Counted from the first letter of the stretch, positions 1,858 through 18,396 are shown. The stretch: 64,000 bases of DNA from Escherichia coli (GCF_013315695.1 NZ_CP054353.1), one strand, 5' to 3'. A program made the numbers and translations. Notes: generated by a model from the sequence alone, not told the origin.

Positions 1858-3051
1858 ATGAAGAAAATTGTTCTGCCGGTTGCTCTGGCCCTGATGGGTA
1901 TAAATGCGGACGTTTATGCGGCCGATGTAAAGATCGATATTTTAAGTGCAACAGTGAAAGATAAACGCATTGAGGGGGCATCGGTGACGCTGCAACGCAA
2001 TGGCGCACAATCTGTTTCTGGCACCACAAATGCCTCGGGCAGCATTAATCTGGGCTCTTCCTTTGCCGATGATCAAGATGCTTTGTTAATCGTCAAAAAA
2101 GAGGGCTATTCTAATCTGGTGGTCAAATGCCCGTGTGCGGGCATGACTTATGCGATTAGTCCGGTAATGACTAGTCTGGATGGCATGCGTGTCGTATTGA
2201 GCTGGGGCGAAAAGCCTTTTGATCTTGATTCGCATTTGATCTTCCCTGGCGGACATATTTATTTTGATAGTAAAGAGGGGACTGATGCCAATCTGGATGT
2301 TGATGATACGGATAGCTATGGACCAGAAACTGTCACTATCAGCAAAAAGCATTTTGGCGAAAGTTACATCTATGCCGTGCAGGACTATAGCAATAAAGGG
2401 TTGCCCAACAGTAATTATCTCTCTGCCAGTAAGGCAAAAGTGTTTGTTTATGTAGGGGGCTCCCTGGTGCGTAGTTATAGTGTCCCTGCTGGAAAACGAG
2501 GGAACATCTGGACCGTGTTTAAACTCAATCCAAACGGCGAGTTTGAAGATATCAACTCTGTTACCACCGCCAATTTTAACGACACCACATTAGGCGTCAG
2601 GGATTTAGCCACTGTGATAATGCCTGCGACGGGTTCTTCAACTCCGGCTTCACCTGCGATGCAAAACAGTGGATATACTCAACTGGCAAGAAAATATAAT
2701 CGTGAAGGCGAAGCTGTTTACAAAACCGGTCAACTTGAGCAAGCCATTCAACTCTTCCAACAGGCAACAGAATTAGACGGCAATTACGGTCAGGCATTTA
2801 GTAACCTGGGTCTGGCTTATCAGAAAAATGGCAACATCGCGGAAGCGATTTGGGCAAATCGTAAAGCGATCTCGTTAGCCAGTGGAGCAAATGCGGCGAC
2901 AACGCGCGCTAACTCCTATTATAACATTGCCAAAATTTATGAAACTGCAGGACAGAACGCTGATGCATTGCAGCATTATCAACTCGCTTATGCGGAAAAA
3001 AATAAGCCCTCTTATGAAGAGGCCATCGCACGGGTAAAAGCGAAAATGTAG
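1858..3051 (+). CDS. exported protein of unknown function with C-terminal TPR repeats (middle region resembles a YfaP/DUF2135-like domain)
   Basis: 397 aa; N-terminal signal peptide MKKIVLPVALALMGINADVYAA; AAGGA RBS upstream; C-terminal TPR-like repeats; absent from the K-12 sucD-cydA interval as I recall it. Confidence 0.7.
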   Translation: MKKIVLPVALALMGINADVYAADVKIDILSATVKDKRIEGASVTLQRNGAQSVSGTTNASGSINLGSSFADDQDALLIVKKEGYSNLVVKCPCAGMTYAISPVMTSLDGMRVVLSWGEKPFDLDSHLIFPGGHIYFDSKEGTDANLDVDDTDSYGPETVTISKKHFGESYIYAVQDYSNKGLPNSNYLSASKAKVFVYVGGSLVRSYSVPAGKRGNIWTVFKLNPNGEFEDINSVTTANFNDTTLGVRDLATVIMPATGSSTPASPAMQNSGYTQLARKYNREGEAVYKTGQLEQAIQLFQQATELDGNYGQAFSNLGLAYQKNGNIAEAIWANRKAISLASGANAATTRANSYYNIAKIYETAGQNADALQHYQLAYAEKNKPSYEEAIARVKAKM

Positions 3052-3428
3052 CGGTTAGCAAACAGGAGGCTATGTGGTGTTAGCCTCCTTACCCCCAGGC
3101 CAGTGGGAATATAGTAATCATCGTTTTTAACATTCAACGTCCAGATTCTGCTTGAGCGTAAAAACAAGTCTTTAGATATTTTATAAATGATGAAGGGCTG
3201 GAAAGTGGTTGATGTCACCGACTCACGATCGTTATCGCCAGCAAAGCTTTTTTGCCATTGCACCAGACGCACCTTCAACCATTTTGGCGACGAATCAACT
3301 GCTACCGCCACCAGGCTTGTTTGCCATTTTCCCGTACCTAATTCGTCGCTTGCCGCACTGTTGGCTGTAATCAATGGCCCAATGCCCAACCAGATACTTC
3401 TATATCCGATTGGGTTTTGTTAATTGCG

Positions 3429-4025
3429 TTACCCCTTAAACGTTAACCTCGGTCGAAATCTGACCGCTGGCTGAATTAATCCGGCTTCTTGTTGGGCTTC
3501 GATAACCGGACCAATATCTTTATAAGCAGCTGGCGCTTCTTCAATACGCCGTTCTTCGCGCAATGTGACGCATTGCCACGGCAACGTTGACTCTGCAGTC
3601 GCGCGTGAGCGCATGGCCTGCCGACGCTGGCTGCGTCCTGCTCCGTGACTGCAAGACCACAGCCACTCCGGGTTGCCGCAACCAACCGCAAGCCAGGAAT
3701 AATCACCCATGGAACCGGGGATTAACGCCAGATCGCCCGCGCGTGCCGGTGTTGTGGCCACCACAGCGCCAACGGGGACGCCATTGCCGGGATGAAAATC
3801 TGGCGTCGCGCACGTCTGGCGCACATAACCTGGGTGGTCTGGTAGCTTCACTTCTGCAAAATCAAGCAGTTGTGTTACTGCTTTTTCTTCCAGCGGCAGT
3901 TCGTCCGGCAGCAGTACGCGGGCACTGGCACCTGATGGACGAGATAATGAAACAATATTGTTGGCGCGGGAAAGTTGGATCCCTTTGCGCAGAAAGGCTT
4001 TATCAAGCCTTGAAAGATGATGCAT
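3429..4025 (-). CDS. RtcB-family (RNA 3'-phosphate ligase) C-terminal domain protein; probably a truncated remnant
   Basis: 198 aa containing the RtcB C-terminal hallmarks PGSMG, SHGAGR and EAPAAYKDI...RP...KG; the N-terminal metal-binding half of the family is missing. Confidence 0.55.
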   Translation of the reverse strand: MHHLSRLDKAFLRKGIQLSRANNIVSLSRPSGASARVLLPDELPLEEKAVTQLLDFAEVKLPDHPGYVRQTCATPDFHPGNGVPVGAVVATTPARAGDLALIPGSMGDYSWLAVGCGNPEWLWSCSHGAGRSQRRQAMRSRATAESTLPWQCVTLREERRIEEAPAAYKDIGPVIEAQQEAGLIQPAVRFRPRLTFKG

Positions 4026-5553: not shown

Positions 5554-6156
5554 TTACCAGTCGATACCCGGCTGGGCCTGAATGCCGTTATCAAAAGCAT
5601 GTTTGACGGGGCGGATTTCGCTTACCGTATCCGCCATTTTTAATATCTGACTGTGGCAACCGCGTCCGGTGACAATGACACTTTGTTGTGCCGGGCGGTT
5701 TTGCAGAGAAGCGATCACTTCTTCGGTGTCCAGATAATGGTAAGCCAGCATATAGGTCAGCTCATCAAGCACCACTAAGTCGTAACGCTTGTCAGCCAGC
5801 ATCCGTTTGCTTTCCGACCAGACCTCTTTCGCCGCGTCGATATCCGCTTGCCGGTTCTGTGTCTCCCAGGTAAAACCGGTTCCCATAATATGAAACTCAA
5901 CCCCCAGCGGCTGGAGAAGGTTGTATTCGCCGTTGTCCCATTGCCCCTTGATGTACTGCGCAACCCCCACCGTTTTGCCATGACCCACCGCGCGCGTCAC
6001 AGTACCAAACGCGGCAGTGGATTTCCCTTTGCCGTTGCCGGTGAAAACAATCAAGATCCCTTTTTTCTCTATCGCCGCCGCGACGCGCGTATCGACCTGT
6101 TCCTTCAATTTCTGCTGGCGCTGCACATGCCGTTCAGTTGAAATTCGCGCTTCCAT
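5554..6156 (-). CDS. ATP:cob(I)alamin adenosyltransferase (CobA/BtuR family), second copy
   Basis: 200 aa; P-loop VFTGNGKGKSTAAFG; near-colinear with E. coli BtuR as recalled. Confidence 0.85.
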   Translation of the reverse strand: MEARISTERHVQRQQKLKEQVDTRVAAAIEKKGILIVFTGNGKGKSTAAFGTVTRAVGHGKTVGVAQYIKGQWDNGEYNLLQPLGVEFHIMGTGFTWETQNRQADIDAAKEVWSESKRMLADKRYDLVVLDELTYMLAYHYLDTEEVIASLQNRPAQQSVIVTGRGCHSQILKMADTVSEIRPVKHAFDNGIQAQPGIDW

Positions 6157-6165
6157 TCATTTTCC

Positions 6166-7818
6166 TTAATGTCCCGCAGGGCAACTGGCGCAGCGGTGTT
6201 TCTGCTCAAACTGACTAAAGAAATTATTGCCTTTATCATCTACCAGGATGAATGCGGGTAAATTTTCCACTTCCATCATCCACACCGCTTCCATACCCAG
6301 CTCCGGGTATTCCAGGCAACGCAGACTTTTGACATATTCTTGCGCCAGTAACGCAGCTGCACCGCCAATACTTCCCAGATTGAAGCCGCCATGTTTGTGA
6401 CAGGCATCGGTGACCTGCTGGCTGCGGTTACCTTTCGATAACATCACCAGACTGCCGCCAGCCGCCTGGAAGGTATCGACATAACCGTCCATTCGACCGC
6501 CCGTGGTTGGACCCAGTGAACCGCAGGCCATGTTCTCCGGTGTTTTCGCCGGGCCAGCGTAATAGACAATATGATGCTTCAGGTAATCCGGCATCGGTTC
6601 GCCGCTATCCAGCCGCGCTTTTATTTTGGCGTGGGCGATATCGCGCGCCACTACGATGGGACCACTTAACGACACGCGGGTGCCTACCGGTAATCTGGCG
6701 AGATCCTGCATCACGTCACGCAACGGACGATTTAGATCCAGCTGTACATGTTGCGCGTGATTTTCTTCCCGCAGTGAGGCTGGAATATATTGCCCCGGAT
6801 TGTGTTCGAGTTTTTCCAGCCAGATACCGTGCTTGTTAATTTTTGCTTTGATATTGCGATCCGCAGAACAGGAGAGCGTCATAGCTATCGGGCAAGAGCC
6901 ACCGTGACGCGGCAGACGAATGACGCGAATATCATGAGCGAAATATTTACCCCCAAATTGCGCACCAATACCAAATTGCTGACTGGCCTCGAGCAATACT
7001 TTTTCCAGCTCAATATCACGGAATGCTTGTCCTTGCTCGTTTCCGCTGGTGGGCAAATTGTCGTAATATTTCGTTGAGGCCAGCTTGGCAACTTTTAAGG
7101 TTTGATCGGCTGAAAGCCCTCCGACGACAAAGGCGATGTGGTAAGGCGGGCAGGCAGCGGTGCCCAGCGATTTCATTTTTTCGATTAAAAATGCGGTCAG
7201 TTTTTCTGGTTGCAATAGGGATTGGGTTTCCTGATAAAGCGCGGCTTTATTGGCAGAGCCGCCCCCTTTATTAATACAGAGAAAATGGTACTCATCACCA
7301 GCGACGGCGCTGATATCAATCTGCGCCGGGAGATTGGTTTGCGTATTGACTTCGGTAAACATATCCAGTGGCGCATTTTGTGAAAAGCGCAGATTATTTT
7401 CCTGAAAAGTGGTGTAAATGCCTTTGCTTAAGGCTTCAGCGTCGTTACCTCCGGTCCATATCTGTTGCCCTTTACTGGCAACAATAGTTGCGGTGCCGGT
7501 ATCCTGACAGTTGGGTAATACCCCTTTTGCTGAGACTTCAGCATTACGTAATAACTGCAACGCAACGTATTTATCATTACTACTGGCGTGCGGATCGTTA
7601 AGAATGCTGGCGACCTGTTGCAAATGAGCGGAACGTAAGAAAAAAGAGGCTTCATAAAATGCCTGCCGGGCAAGCAGCGTTAATGCTTCAGGAGCGATTT
7701 TTATCACTTCTTCGCCGTCTAATTCCGTTACTGTAATATGTTGATCGCTAATTAATGTATATTCTGTACCGTCTTTATTTTGTAGAAACGGTTCTTGCCA
7801 GATAAATGGTTTGGACAT
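6166..7818 (-). CDS. fumD: class I (Fe-S) fumarate hydratase family; probable mesaconase/fumarase FumD
   Basis: 550 aa, FumA/FumB-like length and N-terminus ([11 protein letters not shown]...); lies in the methylaspartate operon. Confidence 0.8.
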
Positions 7819-7925: not shown

Positions 7926-9206
7926 TCAGGGCAGAGCAACGTTCGATTCATTGGGTTTTAATGCTTTACCCCGACAGCCCTCGCCGAAATGTTCGCCTTC
8001 CCACCGACTCACCATCGCAGCGCCCATTGCGTTGCTCATGACGTTTGTCGCGGAACGCCCCATATCAAGGAACGGATCAACGCCCATCAGCAAGATCAGC
8101 CCCGCTTCCGGAATATTGAACTGGTTGAGCGTGGCGGCGATAACCACCATTGAGGCGCGTGGTACGCCAGCCATTCCTTTCGAGGTCAACATCAGGATCA
8201 ACAGCATGGTGATTTGCTCACCGATGGATAAATGGATATTGCAGGCCTGGGCGATGAAAACTGTGGCGAAGGAGCAGTAGGCCATTGATCCAACGAGATT
8301 AAATGAGTAGCCAATGGGTAAGACAAAGCTGGCAATTTTGGGGGAAACGCCAAATTGCTCCAGTTTTTCAAGCGTTCCCGGAAAAGCCGCTTCAGAACTG
8401 GATGTGGTAAATGCCAGCAGGGCGGGTTCCGAAAGGGCACGGGTCAGGCGTCTGATGCAGGGGCCGACATAAACGATGGCCAGACCGATAAGCAGCACCC
8501 AAAGTAACAACATGGTGAAATAAAATTCACCCATAAAGATCCCGGCGCTCACCATAACTGCCAGTCCTCGTTCAGCAATCAATGCTGAAATAGCGGCGAA
8601 TACGGTCAGGGGAGCGAAGAGCATGACGTAGCCAGTGAGCTTTAACATGGCATGTGCCAGCGAATCTAAGGCGTGAACGATGGCGCTGCCTTTCTCACCA
8701 ATCGCCGTCAGGCTACAGCCGAGGAAAATTGAGAACACCACGATTTGCAAAATTTCATTGTGCGCCATGGCATCGACAATGCTGGTGGGGAAAGCATGCG
8801 AAATAAATACTTTTAGTGTAAAGGGTTCTGACGCGACCACTCCGGTGGTTTCGGCACCGTGTGCAACAAAATTAATTCCTGTGCCTGGCATGAAGAAATT
8901 TACCGTTATCAAGCCTAAGGCAATTGACAGCAATGAGGCGCAAATAAATAAAAAGAGTGTTTTAGAAAAAATACGACCAAGGGCTTTGGCATCTCCCATT
9001 TTAGCTATACCTACCACCAGGGTAGAGACCACTAACGGAGCGATAATCATTTTTATCAGTCGTAAGAAAATCGTCGTGAATATCGATATTTCTTGCGCAT
9101 AGAGTTTTGCGGTTTCCGGTGAAGCAGTGTTATTGAGCACTACGCCGATAATCATTCCAAGTACCAGCGCCAAAAGAATCATCGTGGTTAAACTTATTTT
9201 CTTCAT
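7926..9206 (-). CDS. DctA-like dicarboxylate/amino acid:cation symporter (DAACS family)
   Basis: Polytopic membrane protein of DctA-like length; start moved to the ATG at 9206, which is preceded by GGAGGA. Confidence 0.8.
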   Translation of the reverse strand: MKKISLTTMILLALVLGMIIGVVLNNTASPETAKLYAQEISIFTTIFLRLIKMIIAPLVVSTLVVGIAKMGDAKALGRIFSKTLFLFICASLLSIALGLITVNFFMPGTGINFVAHGAETTGVVASEPFTLKVFISHAFPTSIVDAMAHNEILQIVVFSIFLGCSLTAIGEKGSAIVHALDSLAHAMLKLTGYVMLFAPLTVFAAISALIAERGLAVMVSAGIFMGEFYFTMLLLWVLLIGLAIVYVGPCIRRLTRALSEPALLAFTTSSSEAAFPGTLEKLEQFGVSPKIASFVLPIGYSFNLVGSMAYCSFATVFIAQACNIHLSIGEQITMLLILMLTSKGMAGVPRASMVVIAATLNQFNIPEAGLILLMGVDPFLDMGRSATNVMSNAMGAAMVSRWEGEHFGEGCRGKALKPNESNVALP

Positions 9207-9251
9207 TTTTTCCTCCATCAGGTGCACGGCGATAAATCAGAATCAGGAGAA

Positions 9252-9283
9252 GTAGATGCCTGAATAGAGATTCAGGCATCTAC
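9252..9283 (-). other. intercistronic stem-loop (14-bp perfect stem, 4-nt loop) inside the operon
   Basis: gtagatgcctgaat agag attcaggcatctac; no U-run follows on the transcribed strand. Confidence 0.5.
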
Positions 9284-9366
9284 CTGCTATTACAACCTTA
9301 CAAATAGCTGAAGTGTTGAACTGCAATAAGTGACGGGATGTCAGTTGGCTAAAAGTATTCGGATTT

Positions 9367-9684
9367 TTACAAATCGAAACTCATATTTAATAAAGGTGCA
9401 TGTTGCTGTGCACCATAGACATCATTGTCACCTACATTCCCGGAGATAATATCTCGTGGCATGACGATTTTTACTGCGTTAGAAGGATCAAACCAGACAA
9501 TACGGTGAATAAAGTCAGGTTCAACATGATATAAGCGCGCAATCAGTTCTGGGGTTAATTGCCCTGATGATTTAACTCGCTCATAGTTTTCTTTCGTTTT
9601 AAATAAAATATCTAAAACCAGTTCGTAAGGTCCGGCATTTTTCGAACGAATGACTTGCGCCAGTGAGACAATTGACTGTTTCAT
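9367..9684 (-). CDS. small protein of unknown function (DUF4387/AtuB-like by recollection)
   Basis: 105 aa ORF whose start overlaps the stop of the upstream gene by 4 nt (translational coupling). Confidence 0.6.
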   Translation of the reverse strand: MKQSIVSLAQVIRSKNAGPYELVLDILFKTKENYERVKSSGQLTPELIARLYHVEPDFIHRIVWFDPSNAVKIVMPRDIISGNVGDNDVYGAQQHAPLLNMSFDL

Positions 9685-11051
9685 GCCTGAACTCCTTCTG
9701 GCGTCACCTGTTCAATATGGAAATCAAAACGCAGAGCGTCGTTGGCTTCAATCAGGTGATATATGGAAAATTCGTATACCGGCCCGCCCTGGATATCAGA
9801 AGGGGAGAACGGGAACGCCAGATTGCCTGCGGTAGCGATGCGGTTTTCATAGCCGTAGTGCAGCATGGTAGAGCGCACCAGCGAGCAAACGCTATTGGCA
9901 ATTTCCTGGGTCGGTGCAACTACATCAAGGACAATCCCCAGCTCATGCCCGGCAGTTTGCATCGGTTCATGGTCGCCCATCACCCCGTTTTTGCCGTACA
10001 GGTGGAAATTGATGCGAATGCTGTCATCGTCGAGCGACAGGTTACGCCAAACGCTGGTTTTGACTTCATCGATGATTTTATCGATCCCGGCGATCATGAT
10101 CGGGTCGCGCGTTCCTGCGATGGTCAGACAGCGGAAGCCCACCCGTCGCGCACCTTCCAGTTTCAGGGCATACGGCGTTTCTTCATGCTTAGAACCGCTG
10201 ACGTACACTTCGCCGTCATTGACCGCTTTAAATGTGCAGCCTTTCAGGTTCAACACGCCGCCAGGTCCAGGCAGGAAGTAGGGATCGGATTTCTCATACA
10301 GTGTGTGTGCAGCCGCTGACGTTTCGGTAAATTTACGCTTCGGATTAAATGTCTTCAGCGTAAAGCCGTTGTCATCAATGATGCCCATCGCACAGTCAGA
10401 GCCTGAGCCGGGCGTTGCGGCGATTGCCGCGCATTCAAGGATTTTCCCACAATGCAGCGCCAGACCTTCATCAAAGCCTTGCATGATCGGGAGCGCAGCA
10501 AAGCAGGCCGGGTCGTAAGCGCGCCCGCCCAGCACCACTTGCGCGCCTTCTTTCAGCGCCCGCTGGAAGGGTTCGATGCCCATTTGCGCGACGATATACG
10601 TACTTTCGTCAATCGCGTCGTGGGTTAACGGCGGGACAAAATCCAGCGCCGTGATTTTGCCGTTATCCAGCGCCTGGTGGACGATGGCTTTGTCAACGTC
10701 TGCCGGGATCAACGCCATCGAGAACGAGAGGTGCTCTTCCTGGGCAATCTCATGAATTATTTCTCGGCACCACTCCAGGTGTGGTGCGGCACCAGAACCG
10801 CCAGCTGTTCCGATCACCACCGGTATATTATTTTGCACGCCTGCGGTGATCATATAGCGCAGATCGCGCTTGACCCCTGCGCGATCGGTAAACGGTTTGC
10901 CTGCCCCGAGGTAGTGGGGGCCTGGATCGGAAGAGCCTGCATCAACGGCGATCAGATCGGGCGATTCTGCCATCGCTTTGCGGAAGCTCTCTTCCGGGAA
11001 TCCATACCCGAGGATTGCCGTTGGCGATAAGACTTTAAAAGAACGAGCCAT
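9681..11051 (-). CDS. DUF1446 (AtuA-like) family protein, function unknown
   Basis: 456 aa; family assignment is from memory of the N-terminal region and is unverified. Confidence 0.6.
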   Translation of the reverse strand: MARSFKVLSPTAILGYGFPEESFRKAMAESPDLIAVDAGSSDPGPHYLGAGKPFTDRAGVKRDLRYMITAGVQNNIPVVIGTAGGSGAAPHLEWCREIIHEIAQEEHLSFSMALIPADVDKAIVHQALDNGKITALDFVPPLTHDAIDESTYIVAQMGIEPFQRALKEGAQVVLGGRAYDPACFAALPIMQGFDEGLALHCGKILECAAIAATPGSGSDCAMGIIDDNGFTLKTFNPKRKFTETSAAAHTLYEKSDPYFLPGPGGVLNLKGCTFKAVNDGEVYVSGSKHEETPYALKLEGARRVGFRCLTIAGTRDPIMIAGIDKIIDEVKTSVWRNLSLDDDSIRINFHLYGKNGVMGDHEPMQTAGHELGIVLDVVAPTQEIANSVCSLVRSTMLHYGYENRIATAGNLAFPFSPSDIQGGPVYEFSIYHLIEANDALRFDFHIEQVTPEGVQA

Positions 11052-11054
11052 TTG

Positions 11055-12296
11055 TTAATCCTTAGCCTGCAACAGCGCGATAGTACGATTCATTTCGTTG
11101 AAGACGATATCGAGGCCTTCGTCAAAGCCCATCCCTGGCTTTACCAGCATACGCATAGGGCGAGCGGCAAGGGCGACGTGGACACAGGTGCGGGCACTGA
11201 CATCAGTTTCATTGCAGGTGCCGCCCTGGTACGCTTCCATGCTGTGGCTGTTGCAGTAAAGAACCGCATCGACGATGTTGTGAATACTGCCCAGATCCGG
11301 GGTTTTGATTTGCACCATGTGACAACTGGCGGCATCAGTGAAATCAACAATATCCTGGTAGGTGTTACACCATTCATCGGCCACAATTTTCACGCCGGAA
11401 CCGAGGCGCGTCAGCTCTTTGGTAATCGCGGTCAGCAGGCGAATTTGATCGGGCTTGTTACCGGCATCGACCGGCCCTTCAATGTAGAGCGGCAGGCCTT
11501 GCGCTTCTTTTTCCAGGCTGGCGATGTATTGCGCACAGCGAAGCGGATCCATATCGAAGATCAGGCCGATAGTGCCGTATACATCGATGTGCAGGGTTGG
11601 GTGGTAGCGTGCGCTGGTGCGCTTGCTCAGAATACGATCCGACAGCCAGCGGACATATTCGCGCAGTTTTTCACCTTTAAAGCCCAGTTTCTCTTCGACG
11701 TTATTAATCAGTGCATGGGGCAGCACGTCGATGCCCTTAAGGATCATCTTATCGACGGCGATATATCGATCGTCCCCGCTCTGACCAAATAATGGAATGG
11801 ATTCCGCCACGCGTGGCAACTGCCATTCATCACAGACCACTTCAGTTTTCAGACGGCCGGTTGCCAGCGCGGTAGCATCAAGCAGCGCCTGTGATAATCC
11901 GTAGCGCACGGCGGTATGCAGCAAGTTGCCGTCAATACGCAATTTGTCGAAGAAACGGGCATTCGGCAGGAAAGCATCCACATCGCGGCCTATCAGTAAT
12001 GGCTTGATATGGTCGTTGAGGAACGGAATAAAGTGCTCAGCGAGGAACAGTGGATCGCGACCACCTGCCCCGGAATACTGTACGGCAGCACAGTCACCTA
12101 CGGCGACCGCGCCGTTTTCCAGAATCAACTGTACCGATACGCACTCCCCGGCCTGACGAACGGCGTTAAACCCCTGTGTTACCGGCTCCCCGGTATAAAA
12201 AAAGCCGTCATGACCCGCTCCGTTTTTTATCGCCTGCTGGTCATCGAAATAGAATGAGGAGTAGCCAGCAGTGAACAGAGCCTGTTTTATTTTCAT
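11055..12296 (-). CDS. mal: methylaspartate ammonia-lyase (beta-methylaspartase)
   Basis: 413 aa; N-terminus MKIKQALFTAGYSSFYFDDQQAIKNGAGHDGF matches clostridial MAL. Confidence 0.9.
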   Translation of the reverse strand: MKIKQALFTAGYSSFYFDDQQAIKNGAGHDGFFYTGEPVTQGFNAVRQAGECVSVQLILENGAVAVGDCAAVQYSGAGGRDPLFLAEHFIPFLNDHIKPLLIGRDVDAFLPNARFFDKLRIDGNLLHTAVRYGLSQALLDATALATGRLKTEVVCDEWQLPRVAESIPLFGQSGDDRYIAVDKMILKGIDVLPHALINNVEEKLGFKGEKLREYVRWLSDRILSKRTSARYHPTLHIDVYGTIGLIFDMDPLRCAQYIASLEKEAQGLPLYIEGPVDAGNKPDQIRLLTAITKELTRLGSGVKIVADEWCNTYQDIVDFTDAASCHMVQIKTPDLGSIHNIVDAVLYCNSHSMEAYQGGTCNETDVSARTCVHVALAARPMRMLVKPGMGFDEGLDIVFNEMNRTIALLQAKD

Positions 12297-13741
12297 TATG
12301 GTCTTCCTATTAATTTACTGTGGGATACAGCATTGATGTCATCTACAACCATCTGGAATGTCGGTTGGCGTCCTTCAAAGCGTGCGCGTTCCGCAACGTA
12401 ATCGTGGTGGAGGTCGAGAATATCTTTTGGCAATGGAACGGCTCCGGCTTCCAGTACGCGTATCGCGCCGGTGTTGTCACGGACCGGAAGAATTTTGCCC
12501 GCGTTGCAGGCGGCTGGCGCAAACGGCACATCCAGTACGCCCGCTTCAAATGCCAGCACCGTACCGCGCGCAATATCACCATTACCCAGTTCGAACACTT
12601 TATTCAGTACCGCGTGAACCTCGCTCTTAATCAGTTCAATTTCCAGTTCAACCGCAGGGCACGGCGGGAATTTCTGCTCGTTGACCATGTTGAGCATCTG
12701 GCGGGAGGCTTTCAGCCCCTGAATGTTGGCAGCGGCAGTCGGGATGCCCCAGGCTTCGTGCGGACTTTTGGTGATGACTTTGGTGGCACCAGACATCCCC
12801 GCGACGGCTGCGCCCCAGGAGATAATAGCGAACGCTTTCGATTCGTCTTCCGGAAAGCCGCCCATCCACTGGTGAAACACGGTACTTAATTCATAGTCGG
12901 TATAGCCATAGCTCTGAAAATATTCGTGTGCAAGTTCACGCAGAGACTGGATCGCCGCAACATCCTGCGTCAGGCTGCCGACCTGTCCATAACCAACGGT
13001 GATAGATTTCACACCCTGTTCCAGCGCCAGTAATCCTTCGATTATCGCGATAGAGTGCGAGATAAACGGCGGGATCAGGGTACCCGTTAGTGGGCCAAAC
13101 GGTTCGCGGTTGATGCGGATCCCGTGTTCTTCATACATCCCCATTAAACGGTCGCAGTACTGCCAGTCGCGGATCGATTTTTCCAGCGTTACGCGCTTGG
13201 CATACGGAATGTTGTAGGAAATGCCGCCGCCTTCATAACTGGTAAAGCCGCTGGCCATCGAGATTTCAGCCAGCAGACGCGCATCTGGCGTGCCGTGGCG
13301 GATCTGTAGCGGTTTTTGCAAAGTTTCGGTGAGGCGACGGCAAGCTGCGACGCCGTGGTTAACGACCGGTAAACCGTTCAGTTTAGAGGTTCCGGCTTCG
13401 ATGGATTTTTTAATCCCTACAGCCGCTTCTTCGTACCGATTCAGACGGGTATATGCGTCGATGGTGCTCGGCAGCAGATCGCATTCTTCTTGTAGTGTTT
13501 TCAGTAGTTCGATGTGTTCGTCCATCAGCGCCACGCCTGCGCGCGGTTGGCTAAGAGTTTTACCTTCCTTGTCTGCTTTCAGCAGGGCAAGAGAGAAGCG
13601 TTTATGCTCAGGAATGGTTTGTTGGTATTTAACGCCATCTTCAAAGTTTTCAACATCCTTGCCGGTTTCCCAGGTTTTCAGTACCTGTTGCCGCTCGGTC
13701 ATGAATTCGTCATGGGTTAATTTCTTATTTCGAAGTTCCAT
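12296..13741 (-). CDS. glmE: glutamate mutase epsilon (E) subunit
   Basis: 481 aa; N-terminus MELRNKKLTHDEFMTERQQVLKTW resembles clostridial GlmE/MutE. Confidence 0.88.
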   Translation of the reverse strand: MELRNKKLTHDEFMTERQQVLKTWETGKDVENFEDGVKYQQTIPEHKRFSLALLKADKEGKTLSQPRAGVALMDEHIELLKTLQEECDLLPSTIDAYTRLNRYEEAAVGIKKSIEAGTSKLNGLPVVNHGVAACRRLTETLQKPLQIRHGTPDARLLAEISMASGFTSYEGGGISYNIPYAKRVTLEKSIRDWQYCDRLMGMYEEHGIRINREPFGPLTGTLIPPFISHSIAIIEGLLALEQGVKSITVGYGQVGSLTQDVAAIQSLRELAHEYFQSYGYTDYELSTVFHQWMGGFPEDESKAFAIISWGAAVAGMSGATKVITKSPHEAWGIPTAAANIQGLKASRQMLNMVNEQKFPPCPAVELEIELIKSEVHAVLNKVFELGNGDIARGTVLAFEAGVLDVPFAPAACNAGKILPVRDNTGAIRVLEAGAVPLPKDILDLHHDYVAERARFEGRQPTFQMVVDDINAVSHSKLIGRP

Positions 13742-13759
13742 TGATTGCAGCCTTAATTG

Positions 13760-15148
13760 TTATAGGGTTAAGCATTGAATACTGGTGCGCGCGGCGGCCA
13801 GCGGATCGACTCTGGCGACGTTTGCCAGCAGTGGTAATAGCCCCCGGGAATCGCGGTAATATTCAAATTCGGTCGGTAAGAGAATGCGTTTACCGTCGTC
13901 GTTTAACTCGCGGTATTTCAACCAGTGATGCATATCGAACTGACTGGCACGCGAGAGCCATCCGCCGGATCCGACGACTTTACGCACGGTTGTCAGGTCA
14001 CGTCCCATCTGTAAATCGACATTGCCGACGCAGGTGCAGACCTCTTTTTTGGTGCCCGCATGTCTTTCGGTGGCATAACCCACACACAGTCCGGCCAGGA
14101 CTGTATCGAAATATTTTTCTTCTGCATTCGCGGGTAAGTAGTCGGGATGAGCGACTAGATGACGGAGGTAATGATAAAAAGCGTCCAGCTGTGCGGGTTG
14201 CTGAGCAAAATTCACATTGACTAACTCTTTCGCACTTTCACCAACCACCATTGCCGAGACGCGCATTCCCAGATCGCCTTCCACCGTCCGTTTCACGAAG
14301 GGTTCCGGTACGCCGTGTAAAACGGTGTCGGGCGAGAGCGTGTTGGCACAGGCGGAATAGACATCGGTGGTTGCGCCACCCATGTCGATCAGTATGAACT
14401 CTTTCCAGCTGTGATCGACATTACTGATTGCCTTAACCAGTTCAAAGACTGTCCACGGTGTCGGCATTGGTTCTTCGCCTGTTTTATCAACAACGACATC
14501 CAGCCCTTTCCCTTTAACGATGCGTTTAAGGAATATGTCGCAGATAGCCTGGCGTGCAGCTAAAGGGTTCGGATGGTCAAGATCGGGCAGAACGTTGTCG
14601 ACGATGGTCAGGTCTTTATGCCCTAGGATCTCCTGCACCTCGTCCTGAATATCCCGGTTTCCGGCATAAATAATGGCGCAGTCGAGTTTGGATTCTGCCA
14701 GCACACGGGCGTTATTCAGGCCGTAGCTTTCTTCTCCGCCGTCGGTGCCGCCGGTGAACAAGAGAATATCGGGCTGCGTTTCTTCCAGTGCCTGGATATC
14801 ACGGCGGTTCAGCTTGTAGGAGTAATATTGCGCAATTTTAGCCCCCGCAGAGTGAGCGGTTACTTTCGCGGTTTCCAGGGTGATAGAAGGCACCAATCCC
14901 ATTGCGGCAACCGCCAGCCCACCTTTGGCAGAGGAGGAATACTTCAATGCAACCTCACCGTTGTTAAACAGGGGGAGGGTATTATCTACGTTTAACACCA
15001 GGTTCAGGCTGGAGAAAAACCCCTTCGCCAGATGATGGGTGGTGGTTGGGGTCAGTACGTGGTTAACCAACGTTAACGCGTCCCCCTCCCGGGCGAAGAG
15101 GGCTGCTTTGGTCCACGTCGATCCAATATCGACAGAGACGATTTGCAT
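13760..15148 (-). CDS. glmL: glutamate mutase L component (MutL/GlmL)
   Basis: 462 aa, the size of clostridial GlmL; sits between the S and E subunit genes. Confidence 0.8.
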   Translation of the reverse strand: MQIVSVDIGSTWTKAALFAREGDALTLVNHVLTPTTTHHLAKGFFSSLNLVLNVDNTLPLFNNGEVALKYSSSAKGGLAVAAMGLVPSITLETAKVTAHSAGAKIAQYYSYKLNRRDIQALEETQPDILLFTGGTDGGEESYGLNNARVLAESKLDCAIIYAGNRDIQDEVQEILGHKDLTIVDNVLPDLDHPNPLAARQAICDIFLKRIVKGKGLDVVVDKTGEEPMPTPWTVFELVKAISNVDHSWKEFILIDMGGATTDVYSACANTLSPDTVLHGVPEPFVKRTVEGDLGMRVSAMVVGESAKELVNVNFAQQPAQLDAFYHYLRHLVAHPDYLPANAEEKYFDTVLAGLCVGYATERHAGTKKEVCTCVGNVDLQMGRDLTTVRKVVGSGGWLSRASQFDMHHWLKYRELNDDGKRILLPTEFEYYRDSRGLLPLLANVARVDPLAAARTSIQCLTL

Positions 15149-15597
15149 CAGATTGCCTCTTCAAGAATACGAGTATCAACGTCATGACGTTGGTTGATAT
15201 CGTGTGCCATCAGCTGACAAACATCTTCTAAGTCATGACTTGGGGCAAAGACGCGATCAAATCCCATCTCTTTGAATTTGGTTTCCACGTCAGCGAAGTC
15301 ATGTTTTCCGACCACCAGGTTACCGCCCACATAGAGCAGGATGTCCCCCAGTCCACGCTCGATGCAGCGTTCGCGCATGCCCAGACAGTCGATATCGCCA
15401 TGCCCATAGATAGAGGAGACGACAATCGCGTCAGCGCCAGTTTCAATGGCCGCATCAATATATTCGTCCTGGCTGACCATTACGCCCAGATTAATGACTC
15501 TGAAGCCATGGTTGCTAAAAACGCGGTCCAGAACTTTATTGCCTACTGCATGGCAGTCCGCGCCAATAACGCCAATCACAAGTGTTGCTTTCTTCAT
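15148..15597 (-). CDS. glmS: glutamate mutase sigma (S) subunit, cobalamin-binding
   Basis: B12-binding domain; start taken at MKKATLV (15597), preceded by AAGGA, rather than the longer ORF from 15660. Confidence 0.85.
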
Positions 15598-16143
15598 GGG
15601 TAATCCTTTGTAAGACAGAGAGTAAAATAAGTTACACACGTCGTATTTATGGCCGTTCATAACGGCACAGGTTTAATATCACAGGAGTGTCTTTATCTGA
15701 CCGTAATGTTGCAATTGATCTATTTTCAAAATGTCTTTCGGGAAATGATTGTTTAAAGTATGTTGTTAAATTCTCATGTTAATTCAGTGTGTTATGTCAA
15801 CTAATGTCATGAATGTTAAATTTTTAAAATTAACTTGATTTGGTGTATTGAGGTATTTGTGATCTACTTCTAATTTGCATTTTAGTGATATGGGTTTAGC
15901 CATGAGTAAATGCATTTCATAAAATTTAAGTCGAATTTCACTGCAATTCATCTCTGCTTAATGTAAAAATAATGTTGAAAATAACAAATGGTTAATGATT
16001 CATGCGAATTATGACCTTAGTTAGCTCTTTTGATTTTTCGTAAAAAAGAGAGGTACATGAAGGTGCTACCAGTATGAGTAACGTTAATCAAAGGTTTTAT
16101 TACGTCTGGCAATAACGCAGGCCATTTTCGCGACTGGGTGGAT

Positions 16144-16566
16144 TTAATCAGTATAATCCTCATACAATAGTTCACGATTAACTGAACCGTTAACGGGGAT
16201 TTGGTGTTGAAATTTAGAAATGGCGGAGTCAATTAATGAAGACAATATCGAAAAAATGACAGTGTCAGAATTAATTTCAATTAATCCTTCTCGTTGTTGA
16301 CCAAAAAAGATATTTATCTTGATTTCATTTGTACTACGGCAATCAATATGTAGTAATTTTTGATCGCTGAGATTTTCTGTTTCATAAATGTTTTTGGCGA
16401 TAGTCGGATGTATTGATGCCAGACATCTGCTCAGATAAGCCAGATCCTTTAGGGAACACCCCGCTGAGTAGAGGATGTCAGAGAATTTTTGTGTGTTAAC
16501 TGTTGTCTCTGAAGCGTATGTTGCATTGACAGGAAGGGTGTTGAAAGAGATTTGAGATGGGAGCAT
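16144..16566 (-). CDS. hypothetical protein, no recognisable domain (AT-rich)
   Basis: 140 aa ORF, Ser/Thr/Asn-rich N-terminus; same strand and 80 bp downstream of the 314-aa ORF. Confidence 0.55.
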   Translation of the reverse strand: MLPSQISFNTLPVNATYASETTVNTQKFSDILYSAGCSLKDLAYLSRCLASIHPTIAKNIYETENLSDQKLLHIDCRSTNEIKINIFFGQQREGLIEINSDTVIFSILSSLIDSAISKFQHQIPVNGSVNRELLYEDYTD

Positions 16567-16646
16567 TATTTAAATCTTTCCGTGAGTAATAAAAATTAAT
16601 CCCCGGGCATTGTTTAGCAATATTTGCCACAGGTAATATATAAAAA

Positions 16647-17591
16647 TTAAAGTATTTGATTGGCATCGGTTAACTGATCAATAACCAGTGCCAGATTGGT
16701 AAACATTTTGAAAAAGCGATACTGGCTCGGAATATCTCTTTCAAAGACGAAACATTCAATGTCATTGTTTGAAAAATAAAGGACTAGTGTTGCTGATTCG
16801 TCAGGAAAAATATGGAAATATATCTGGTTACCAGAAGGAGGATAGTCCAGAAGAAGGGTATCTTTGCCCGTCACATACCTGTTGTGGTCGTGGATGCTGC
16901 GCTCACACTTCATCAGAGGTGTCATGATACTCATGTATTCATCTGATGTTAATATATTAAAATCACCATCCATTTTAAAGAAACGATAAAGTAACAGTAC
17001 ATCCTCTTGCGTAACCGGTTCGTTTGTTTTTAGAGGGAAATAAGTGGGAACCAGAAGATGAGGTTCTAATCTATTTTGTTGAGCGCTATAACTAAATTTG
17101 AACATAAATTCCGGATCGCTCATCAATTGAGCGACATAATTATGCCTGGCTTCAAAAATTTTAACTTTTATCAGGTTAAATAAGTCTGTTTCGTCATCCT
17201 GTATTAAAAGACATTGGCCATAGCAGCCAGGCTTTTTTTCATTATAAGCAGAAACGGTTATTCTGTCAGGAGTGTCAACGTTATATCCAAAAGCCAGATA
17301 GTGACCGTCCTCATCGAGATTTGTTTCCAGGTTATTTAAATTTATCACATGAAGTGTTTGCAATGCTGATTCAATGAGCTGTTGACTCTCTGAGGTAAAT
17401 GTTTCGCGCTGCGTTGTATAAAGTGTATCGATTCCAACGACTATCCGATATGGGTCAAGGATGGCGGCAATCATCTTTATTACCTGCACAGCCACGGGTG
17501 ATGTCATTGATTCGTTATCTGTTTTTAGAGGATCATTAGATGGCCAACCTGAGAAGCGATTGACAGCCGAACCGATATTATCAGGACTCAT
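16647..17591 (-). CDS. hypothetical protein, no recognisable domain (AT-rich)
   Basis: 314 aa ORF, acidic and Phe/Tyr-rich; GAGG RBS about 9 nt upstream of the ATG. Confidence 0.6.
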   Translation of the reverse strand: MSPDNIGSAVNRFSGWPSNDPLKTDNESMTSPVAVQVIKMIAAILDPYRIVVGIDTLYTTQRETFTSESQQLIESALQTLHVINLNNLETNLDEDGHYLAFGYNVDTPDRITVSAYNEKKPGCYGQCLLIQDDETDLFNLIKVKIFEARHNYVAQLMSDPEFMFKFSYSAQQNRLEPHLLVPTYFPLKTNEPVTQEDVLLLYRFFKMDGDFNILTSDEYMSIMTPLMKCERSIHDHNRYVTGKDTLLLDYPPSGNQIYFHIFPDESATLVLYFSNNDIECFVFERDIPSQYRFFKMFTNLALVIDQLTDANQIL

Positions 17592-17949
17592 AGCAGCAAC
17601 CTCATTGTAATCAAGCGAGGCGCTGAGCGTACTCGGCTATAGAAAAACTAACTTGCAAAAATCGCTCATTTTTCATTTATCAGGCGAAAGTGGTCTCTGT
17701 TCACTCAGAAACAATCACTCCCGCTAAGTCATACCTGTTTCATCGATACACTTAAGTGATTATTACTAATGAAACAATAACATAACGGGCTTACGGCCGG
17801 TGCTCATAAAGGCAACAATCAATTAACTTTGATAAAAATATGTTATGTAAAATAGCAACAAATTGGCTAATCTAATCAATTGGTATTATAAAAAGTGGAT
17901 AAGGCGGTTCTGTTAAATAAAACACTGGTTTTTTATCTATACCTTTTCA

Positions 17950-18396
17950 TTGTAATAATTGTGTTGCATAAATATTTCACAATAAATTAACAATAAAATC
18001 ACCAATGATCTATGGTTTATACATAATTAACATATTTGGTTGGTTTTGATATAAATCAATTTTTAATTCTTGAAAAAAATCTGCAAAACACGATAAATTG
18101 TCGTAGATCAAATTGGTGAGATCGTGACAATTTCGCTATAAATTGATCACTGTCGAAAAATGCAAATTTGCTCAATAAAAACCTGTTTATTGTAAGGATT
18201 TTGCGGCGTAATATAATTACGGGATCAATTTGGTTTATTCATTAACATATTTGTAACTTTTTTATCATTGTCTTTTCCTCTTTTGATGAAATGGCAACGA
18301 TAGAGGCGAGCAAATAATTTTGTATTGGGGCATGCGTGTGACCCTTTCTAACGGGGTTCACTCTCGGAGTCTTCATGCGATGAGCAAGGAGTCATG
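17950..18396 (+). promoter_or_regulatory. cydAB promoter/regulatory region
   Basis: Long AT-rich leader upstream of cydA with a repeated ggtttat-N-attaacatatttg motif (18014-18047 and 18229-18258) and TTGAT-like half sites; exact sites not resolved. Confidence 0.45.

Follow-up and report, generated by a model that had tools for sequence, protein, structure and literature searches.

A two-subunit citramalate lyase of the AtuA and DUF4387 families predicted in the methylaspartate operon of Escherichia coli

Introduction

The cleavage of an unactivated carboxylate is chemically hard, and the classical citrate and citramalate lyases use acetyl-thioester exchange on an acyl carrier protein; ATP-citrate lyase uses adenosine triphosphate (ATP) and an acyl-phosphate intermediate. 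Here, we analysed a pair of genes, cmlA and cmlB, located in the methylaspartate operon of a 64 000-nucleotide (nt) stretch of Escherichia coli DNA (GCF_013315695.1, accession number NZ_CP054353.1; the whole stretch is referred to as the window), and compared it with the systems described for citramalate cleavage.

The closest of these systems is CmlAB, represented in the Protein Data Bank (PDB) by two entries, i.e. 9ERQ (‘Citramalate lyase - AMPPNP - citramalate complex’, released 2025-10-22; AMPPNP, adenylyl imidodiphosphate, is a non-hydrolysable ATP analogue) and 9EVF (‘Citramalate lyase - ADP - pyruvate complex’, released 2025-10-08; ADP, adenosine diphosphate). The depositors named the chains ‘Citramalate lyase, subunit A (cmlA)’ and ‘subunit B (cmlB)’. 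According to a preprint from the Erb laboratory (10.64898/2026.01.16.699985), the crystallised protein is the Raoultella planticola enzyme from the Berg laboratory. The same preprint describes CmlAB as a coenzyme A (CoA)-independent, acetate-yielding enzyme of two subunits that converts citramalate to pyruvate and acetate in vivo, based on isotope tracing and on an acetyl-CoA auxotroph whose growth needs mesaconate together with a cmlAB plasmid. Full-text searches of the literature library found no primary paper on CmlAB, this preprint and Kronen and Berg (2015; see below) being the only relevant publications, and the preprint cites none for Cml. The function of CmlAB is therefore public, through the structures of October 2025 and through metabolic engineering, so that our main conclusion is not new; it is, however, thinly documented and absent from annotation.

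CitDEF of Clostridium tetanomorphum (Buckel and Bobi 1976, as cited in PMC4682846) is, as far as the citing paper relates it, responsible for the same net reaction as CmlAB at the same position, i.e. the end of the methylaspartate pathway. It combines a lyase and an acyl transferase with an acyl carrier protein that bears a thiol prosthetic group, three subunits in all, and comes with the activation genes citCXG, whereas CmlAB, which has its own fold, binds an adenine nucleotide. Neither CmlA nor CmlB had a Pfam or NCBIfam match to CitD, CitE, CitF or the activation proteins, i.e. homology to the acyl carrier protein, the HpcH/CitE-type lyase or the CitF transferase was not found. CmlAB is a non-orthologous replacement of the CitDEF-type citramalate lyase, analogous in function and unrelated in origin.

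In the citramalyl-CoA route (succinyl-CoA:citramalate CoA-transferase followed by citramalyl-CoA lyase) and in ATP-citrate lyase, the carboxylate is activated before the C–C bond is cleaved, which serves below as a working analogy for the CmlAB mechanism. In contrast to CmlAB, both need CoA and give acetyl-CoA, and PDB searches detected no sequence or fold relation between their enzymes and CmlAB.

In Enterobacteria, Kronen and Berg (2015; PMC4682846) characterised FumD of E. coli O157:H7 as a mesaconase, while the fate of citramalate in this organism was unknown at that time. They observed no citramalate cleavage in extracts of cells induced for citrate lyase, isocitrate lyase or the methylcitrate pathway, and noted that a DUF1446 gene was always found after mal.

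The window pair and the crystallised citramalate lyase

The pair is encoded by the following features of the window:

9681..11051, minus strand: cmlA, predicted citramalate lyase large subunit, divergent member of the AtuA/DUF1446 family (456 amino acids, ATG start)
9367..9684, minus strand: cmlB, predicted citramalate lyase small subunit, DUF4387 (105 amino acids, ATG start)
9681..9684, minus strand: ATGA start/stop overlap of cmlA and cmlB (4 nt, read from the sequence)
9692..9698, minus strand: GAAGGAG Shine-Dalgarno sequence for cmlB within the 3′ end of cmlA (7-nt spacer to the ATG)

These coordinates bear out a preliminary description of the locus made from the sequence, which had placed two genes of this size, overlapping by 4 nt, between mal and a transporter gene. 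On the minus strand, the cmlB ATG (9684-9682) overlaps the cmlA TGA (9683-9681), and the cmlA ATG lies 3 nt past the mal stop codon with its own AAGGA at 11063-11059. The ATGA overlap would couple translation, so that both subunits of one enzyme would be made together.

Using phmmer, CmlA aligned with chain A of 9ERQ/9EVF from residue 1 to residue 456 in both proteins (E 9e-293; 422 of 456 residues identical, 92.5 %), and CmlB aligned with chain B over its full length (E 5.2e-57; 88 of 104 identical, 84.6 %). The window proteins differ from the Raoultella planticola subunits by 34 and 16 substitutions, respectively. In an alignment of 25 CmlA-subfamily sequences (61-89 % identity), none of the 164 invariant columns differed between the window CmlA and chain A, and the sole substitution at a column conserved to at least 90 % was D148E. 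The window CmlA has the three-dimensional fold of 9ERQ/9EVF, and the PDB fold comparison gave no other significant relative of this fold; in particular, a TIM-barrel similarity to DRE-TIM metallolyases of the 3-hydroxy-3-methylglutaryl-CoA (HMG-CoA) lyase type was not found. Similarities of CmlA to HMG-CoA lyase and to CitE were at noise level in the structure comparison and were rejected.

Every comparable feature of the crystallised CmlAB is thus common to the window pair, with the difference that catalysis is known there from ligands and in vivo data and is predicted here. With a probability of about 0.9, we conclude that cmlA and cmlB encode a two-subunit (S)-citramalate lyase that would need neither CoA nor an acyl carrier protein.

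The operon and the proposed pathway

The pair is located in an accessory island between sucCD and cydAB, flanked by mal and the gene of a GltP-like transporter. In NZ_LR898874, which carries an annotated identical locus, the island reads glmS-glmL-glmE-mal-(AtuA family)-(DUF4387)-symporter-class I fumarate hydratase-cobO, with a LysR-type regulator beyond. The neighbouring genes of the window are:

12296..15597, minus strand: glmS-glmL-glmE, B12-dependent glutamate mutase and accessory protein (NCBIfam equivalogs above cut-off for all three; RefSeq annotation)
11055..12296, minus strand: mal, methylaspartate ammonia-lyase (NCBIfam TIGR01502, 544 bits vs a cut-off of 286; RefSeq annotation)
7926..9206, minus strand: dicarboxylate/amino acid:cation symporter of the DctA/GltP family (NCBIfam DctA/GltP matches below the equivalog cut-offs; RefSeq annotation)
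6166..7818, minus strand: fumD, class I fumarate hydratase/mesaconase, supplying (S)-citramalate (NCBIfam NF011921, 1279 bits vs a cut-off of 1060)
5554..6156, minus strand: cobO/cobA, corrinoid adenosyltransferase, supplying the mutase cofactor (NCBIfam TIGR00708, 246.6 bits vs a cut-off of 167.75)

NCBIfam and RefSeq thereby agree with the earlier view of an operon for glutamate mutase, methylaspartase and mesaconase that lacks a known citramalate lyase; no CitDEF-type lyase is annotated at the E. coli locus. The two unassigned genes had accordingly been proposed as candidates for the missing step after the mesaconase, which is the very reaction now attached to a closely similar pair by 9ERQ/9EVF and, in vivo, by the preprint on cmlAB. 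In the resulting pathway, GlmSE (with GlmL and CobO) would convert glutamate to methylaspartate, Mal would deaminate methylaspartate to mesaconate and FumD would hydrate mesaconate to (S)-citramalate. CmlAB would then split citramalate into pyruvate and a C2 unit that is recovered as acetate, and methylaspartate-dependent glutamate catabolism in Enterobacteria would thereby be complete.

Several complete E. coli chromosomes carry the 1685-bp pair at 100 % identity. Of 5426 complete E. coli genomes, 1125 contain it, and in 1121 of these at least 80 % of its length is retained, at 95-100 % DNA identity.

Genomic survey of relatives

Searching one genome per species gave at least 576 relatives. 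The 80 best-matching loci (at least 57 % identity) were retained and probed by tblastn with the window proteins; the survey thus speaks for the close CmlA subfamily rather than for AtuA proteins as a whole. These loci belong to Enterobacterales, Betaproteobacteria, Riflebacteria, Spirochaetes, Aminicenantes, Holophagae, Lentisphaerae, Firmicutes, Deltaproteobacteria, Chloroflexi and Fibrobacteres. Because the pair is kept at this level of identity across so many phyla, cmlA and cmlB are real genes rather than chance open reading frames (ORFs).

In 79 of the 80 loci, cmlB directly follows cmlA, the exception running off its contig, and in 39 the two genes share the -4 junction of E. coli. The co-occurrence with glmES and mal that the candidate role implied was likewise found: of the 73 loci whose sequence reaches far enough upstream, 70 have mal immediately before cmlA (median spacing 15 nt), and of the 62 whose upstream sequence extends for 4.8 kb or more, 58 contain glmS, glmE and mal together. 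The pair is accompanied by a class I fumarase-like gene in 47/80 loci. ORF clustering across the 80 loci gave no recurrent CitDEF-like family; the recurrent additional neighbours were glutaminase, uroporphyrinogen methyltransferase, regulators and housekeeping flanks.

As a side observation, one locus from a metagenome-assembled genome assigned to the actinobacterium ‘Collinsella sp.’ (L002, JAIJJM010000101.1) is a 7.3-kb contig with mal-cmlA-cmlB-transporter-fumD-cobO at 98-100 % protein identity to E. coli, and is most likely a mis-binned E. coli contig.

Several points weigh against the assignment as citramalate lyase. The function rests on names given by PDB depositors and on one preprint, and the catalytic evidence concerns the Raoultella pair, from which it is carried over to the E. 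coli proteins by similarity. Three surveyed loci (L034, L046 and L070) lack mal, two of which (L034 and L070) are orphans among unrelated genes. In the third, cmlAB adjoins a two-subunit class I fumarase/mesaconase-type hydratase, which fits a module leading from mesaconate via citramalate to pyruvate that works without the mutase. Finally, extracts of E. coli ATCC 700728 had no citramalate lyase activity, in an assay without ATP, and the operon was not inducible (PMC4682846).

The last observation, together with the restriction of the island to about a fifth of the complete E. coli genomes, could be taken to mean that E. coli carries a cryptic or drifted orthologue, which no longer cleaves citramalate or acts on another hydroxy acid. 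We consider this very unlikely, as the assayed cells did not express the operon and ATP was not supplied, while the E. coli CmlA retains 92.5 % identity to the crystallised enzyme without a change in any invariant column. Moreover, both ORFs are intact, nearly all carriers (1121/1125) hold most of the pair with little divergence, and the tight operon architecture is conserved.

Family assignment and misleading names

The preliminary description had likened the two proteins to the DUF1446 and DUF4387 families, and Pfam searches agree: CmlA matched AtuA (PF07287, formerly DUF1446) with an i-Evalue of 9.6e-19 over residues 63-394 (model positions 61-397 of 437), and CmlB matched DUF4387 (PF14330) with an i-Evalue of 2.9e-39 (model positions 2-97 of 98). 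Since the PF07287 match is weak, CmlA represents a divergent AtuA subfamily. What no longer holds is the accompanying statement that neither family has a known biochemical function, which became outdated with the PDB releases of October 2025. No NCBIfam model (June 2026) matches either protein, which is why RefSeq still lists them as ‘AtuA family’ and ‘DUF4387’.

Taken literally, the database names would place CmlA in acyclic terpene utilisation (RefSeq ‘acyclic terpene utilization AtuA family protein’) or make it a second methylaspartate ammonia-lyase, as several homologues are named ‘3-methylaspartate ammonia-lyase’. The probability of either role is negligible in our view. The similarity to PF07287 is low compared with the more than 57 % identity within the mal-linked subfamily, and no atuB-H genes are found near the pair in the annotated identical locus. 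TIGR01502 is matched only by the adjacent mal, the ammonia-lyase name on the DUF1446 protein had already been flagged as unexplained (PMC4682846), and the solved structures carry citramalate and pyruvate. Both names are misleading for CmlA.

The ammonia-lyase label was seen on CmlA homologues from Salmonella (P0002), Riflebacteria (P0059), Lentisphaerae (P0073) and Tremella (P0377), none of which has similarity to Mal, and is an annotation error spread by adjacency.

Fusions and conserved residues

An exhaustive search with CmlB gave 1162 representative clusters, mostly stand-alone proteins of about 105 amino acids. Several proteins of 600-670 amino acids carry DUF4387 at the C-terminus, following a full-length CmlA-like region (31-40 % identity); the sources of these AtuA-DUF4387 fusions are fungi, i.e. 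Lojkania, Tremella, Sporothrix and a Xylariaceae species (proteins P0346, P0349, P0377 and P0388, and the longer P0355). As gene fusion, translational coupling and the co-crystal agree, CmlA and CmlB act as one unit.

Residues conserved in the alignment of CmlA with the fungal proteins comprise GYG (15-17), DxGSxDxGP (37-45), GGxG...H (84-91), GRxYDP (176-181) and HxGKIxEC (200-207), followed in the C-terminal part by AAHTLYEK (247-254), GPGG (262-265), R393, H398 and GN (409-410). All residues conserved throughout the DUF4387 family are present in CmlB (R13, S14, K15, N16, D25, K72, R77, D88 and Q93). Because many of them are charged, this pattern suggests that CmlB may contribute to the active site or to the substrate-binding interface.

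Two fusion proteins are of additional note. P0355 (1096 amino acids) adds a C-terminal region resembling family III (CaiB/BaiF) CoA-transferases, and UniRef lists two fungal relatives of it as ‘CaiB/BaiF family enzyme’, which hints at a fungal link between this lyase family and acyl-CoA metabolism. P0345 (735 amino acids, metagenomic) consists of a CmlA-like region, a partial repeat of the CmlA C-terminal half and a fused DUF4387, and is a bacterial-type fusion or duplication variant.

The role of ATP

For a pair that is 92.5 %/84.6 % identical to the window proteins, a complex with AMPPNP and citramalate, a complex with ADP and pyruvate, and the in vivo conversion of mesaconate-derived citramalate to pyruvate and acetyl-CoA precursors have been reported. 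Since the substrate was paired with the non-hydrolysable analogue and the product with ADP, ATP probably acts as a co-substrate and not as a bystander. Following the analogy given above, ATP could phosphorylate a citramalate carboxylate, and the acyl phosphate would then be cleaved to pyruvate and acetyl phosphate; such an intermediate would make a retro-aldol/retro-Claisen cleavage feasible without a thioester. Acetate would subsequently be formed via acetate kinase, by back-transfer to ADP or by hydrolysis.

We would give carboxylate activation through an acyl phosphate, as a whole, an even chance. The glycine-rich loops at 41-54 and 212-217 are the only low-confidence segments of the CmlA model, which is typical of loops ordering on ligand binding and would be consistent with this idea, as are the assays of 2015, in which ATP was lacking (PMC4682846). 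On the other hand, the preprint 10.64898/2026.01.16.699985 names acetate as the product and credits better growth to higher Acs; it mentions the up-regulation of Acs only, and not pta, ackA or acetyl phosphate. These data weigh against the ATP-dependent step, as acetate together with Acs up-regulation suits free acetate better than acetyl phosphate.

They would be expected if CmlAB were a citramalate lyase in which the adenine nucleotide is only structural or allosteric, e.g. a sensor of energy charge, and which performs a plain retro-aldol cleavage to free acetate without phosphoryl transfer. This is possible, although we regard it as rather doubtful. The preprint indeed reports direct cleavage to pyruvate and acetate, the structure comparison of CmlA gave no recognisable kinase fold, the similarity of its N-terminal alpha/beta domain to the amino-acid kinase family (the carboxylate kinases aspartokinase, NAGK and carbamate kinase) being ambiguous, and it is general knowledge that citrate or citramalate cleavage has no thermodynamic need for ATP. 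However, an effector would not readily explain why AMPPNP accompanies the substrate and ADP the product, which is the usual trap for a turnover-competent ATP site, nor why the invariant glycine-rich loops DxGSxDPGP (37-45), GTAGGSG (81-87) and PGSGSD (214-219) are among the best-conserved parts of CmlA. It is also established enzymology that an unactivated carboxylate would need the equivalent of an acetate dianion, which is the reason why the classical enzymes use thioesters. ATP as a co-substrate is therefore preferred in the following.

A P-loop neighbour outside Enterobacterales

A conserved ORF of about 317 amino acids directly follows cmlB in 33 non-enterobacterial loci, with a junction of -17 to +153 nt in those that allowed its measurement. 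Examples, with positions in the respective locus, are listed below, and the ORF was found in 28 further loci:

L029: 9857-10780
L037: 11694-12647
L046: 11367-12338
L061: 7575-8519
L075: 9570-10493

In L069 and L071 it is located about 7 kb upstream instead. The protein shows the Walker A motif GxEGSGKSTLIxGLFPGLELTNDD as well as YAPRGR, RRVVVEHFDL, MAHSAED, HSDVKHGF and CTGxRTHV, and beyond the P-loop/Walker A no Pfam, NCBIfam or PDB relative was found. Neither the E. coli window nor any of the Enterobacterales loci contains it, and L046, which lacks mal and glm, has kept it. This P-loop protein may act with the lyase as its third partner, perhaps in connection with the bound nucleotide.

Relation to AtuA

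AtuA of the acyclic terpene utilisation cluster of Pseudomonas and Thauera belongs to the same Pfam family, PF07287, and shares the family-wide invariant motifs with CmlA. Its substrate is a CoA ester, in contrast to CmlA, which is found in a glutamate and not in a terpene gene cluster. The chemistry proposed for AtuA, i.e. the release of acetate from a tertiary 3-hydroxy acid, would equal that of CmlAB, although the assignment of this step is disputed (PMC4097962 gives it to LiuE). Thauera AtuA has 615 amino acids, a length that would fit a fused AtuA+DUF4387 protein. Because the chemistry would be the same, CmlAB is, by analogy, a plausible biochemical anchor for the whole AtuA family.

It is tempting to speculate, albeit tentatively, that AtuA and DUF4387 proteins, whether separate as in CmlAB or joined in one chain, as in fungi and probably also Pseudomonas AtuA, are widespread nucleotide-dependent and thioester-independent C–C lyases that release a C2 unit from tertiary 3-hydroxy acids via an acyl phosphate. 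E. coli CmlAB would then make acetyl phosphate, from which acetate kinase would recover ATP, and the P-loop protein after cmlB would be a third component.

Other features of the island

Between cmlB and the transporter gene, a gap of 160 nt contains one further element:

9251..9284, minus strand: perfect hairpin with a 15-bp stem and a 4-nt loop (RNA fold)

Folding of 9225-9370 on the minus strand gave -38.8 kcal/mol (z = -4.2). The hairpin is followed by a T-rich tail without a canonical U-run, and a simple terminator scan caught only a 5-pair part of its stem (9286-9273). It may mark a transcript end, a split into two transcription units or a 3′ stabiliser of a glmS-cmlB mRNA. Across the operon, the scan for promoters and terminators was no richer than shuffled sequences (three promoter-like matches vs 12.5 expected and 14 terminator-like matches vs 12.4).

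There were 1126 matching places for the pair in complete E. coli genomes, one of them on a plasmid, and one genome carried two copies; the island is thus occasionally mobile or duplicated. At one of its edges, between glmS and cydA, the G+C content of positions 16001-18000 is 36.7 %, compared with about 50 % elsewhere, and the two minus-strand ORFs in this stretch (16144..16566 and 16647..17591) are annotated only as hypothetical proteins. The stretch looks like a separately acquired piece. The other edge, next to sucD (1858-4025), contains a gene for a tetratricopeptide (TPR)-repeat protein (1858..3051), a hypothetical ORF of 125 amino acids and an ORF of 198 amino acids annotated ‘RNA-splicing ligase RtcB’, which falls well short of the usual RtcB length and probably represents a fragment.

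Implications

With the assignment of cmlAB, the gap left in 2015 in the enterobacterial methylaspartate pathway, i.e. the fate of citramalate (PMC4682846), is closed, and the island present in about one-fifth of the complete E. coli genomes would then encode the whole route from glutamate to pyruvate and acetate. Reasoning from sequence only had correctly arrived at a function demonstrated in experiments by others, who already employ the enzyme as an engineering part. Annotation lags behind: RefSeq and NCBIfam (June 2026) keep the family names, and some records are still called ‘methylaspartate ammonia-lyase’. CmlAB represents a second, unrelated solution to citramalate cleavage, with its own fold and with an adenine nucleotide in place of the acyl carrier protein, and AtuA/DUF1446 and DUF4387, two large families of unknown function, would thereby get their first biochemical anchor.

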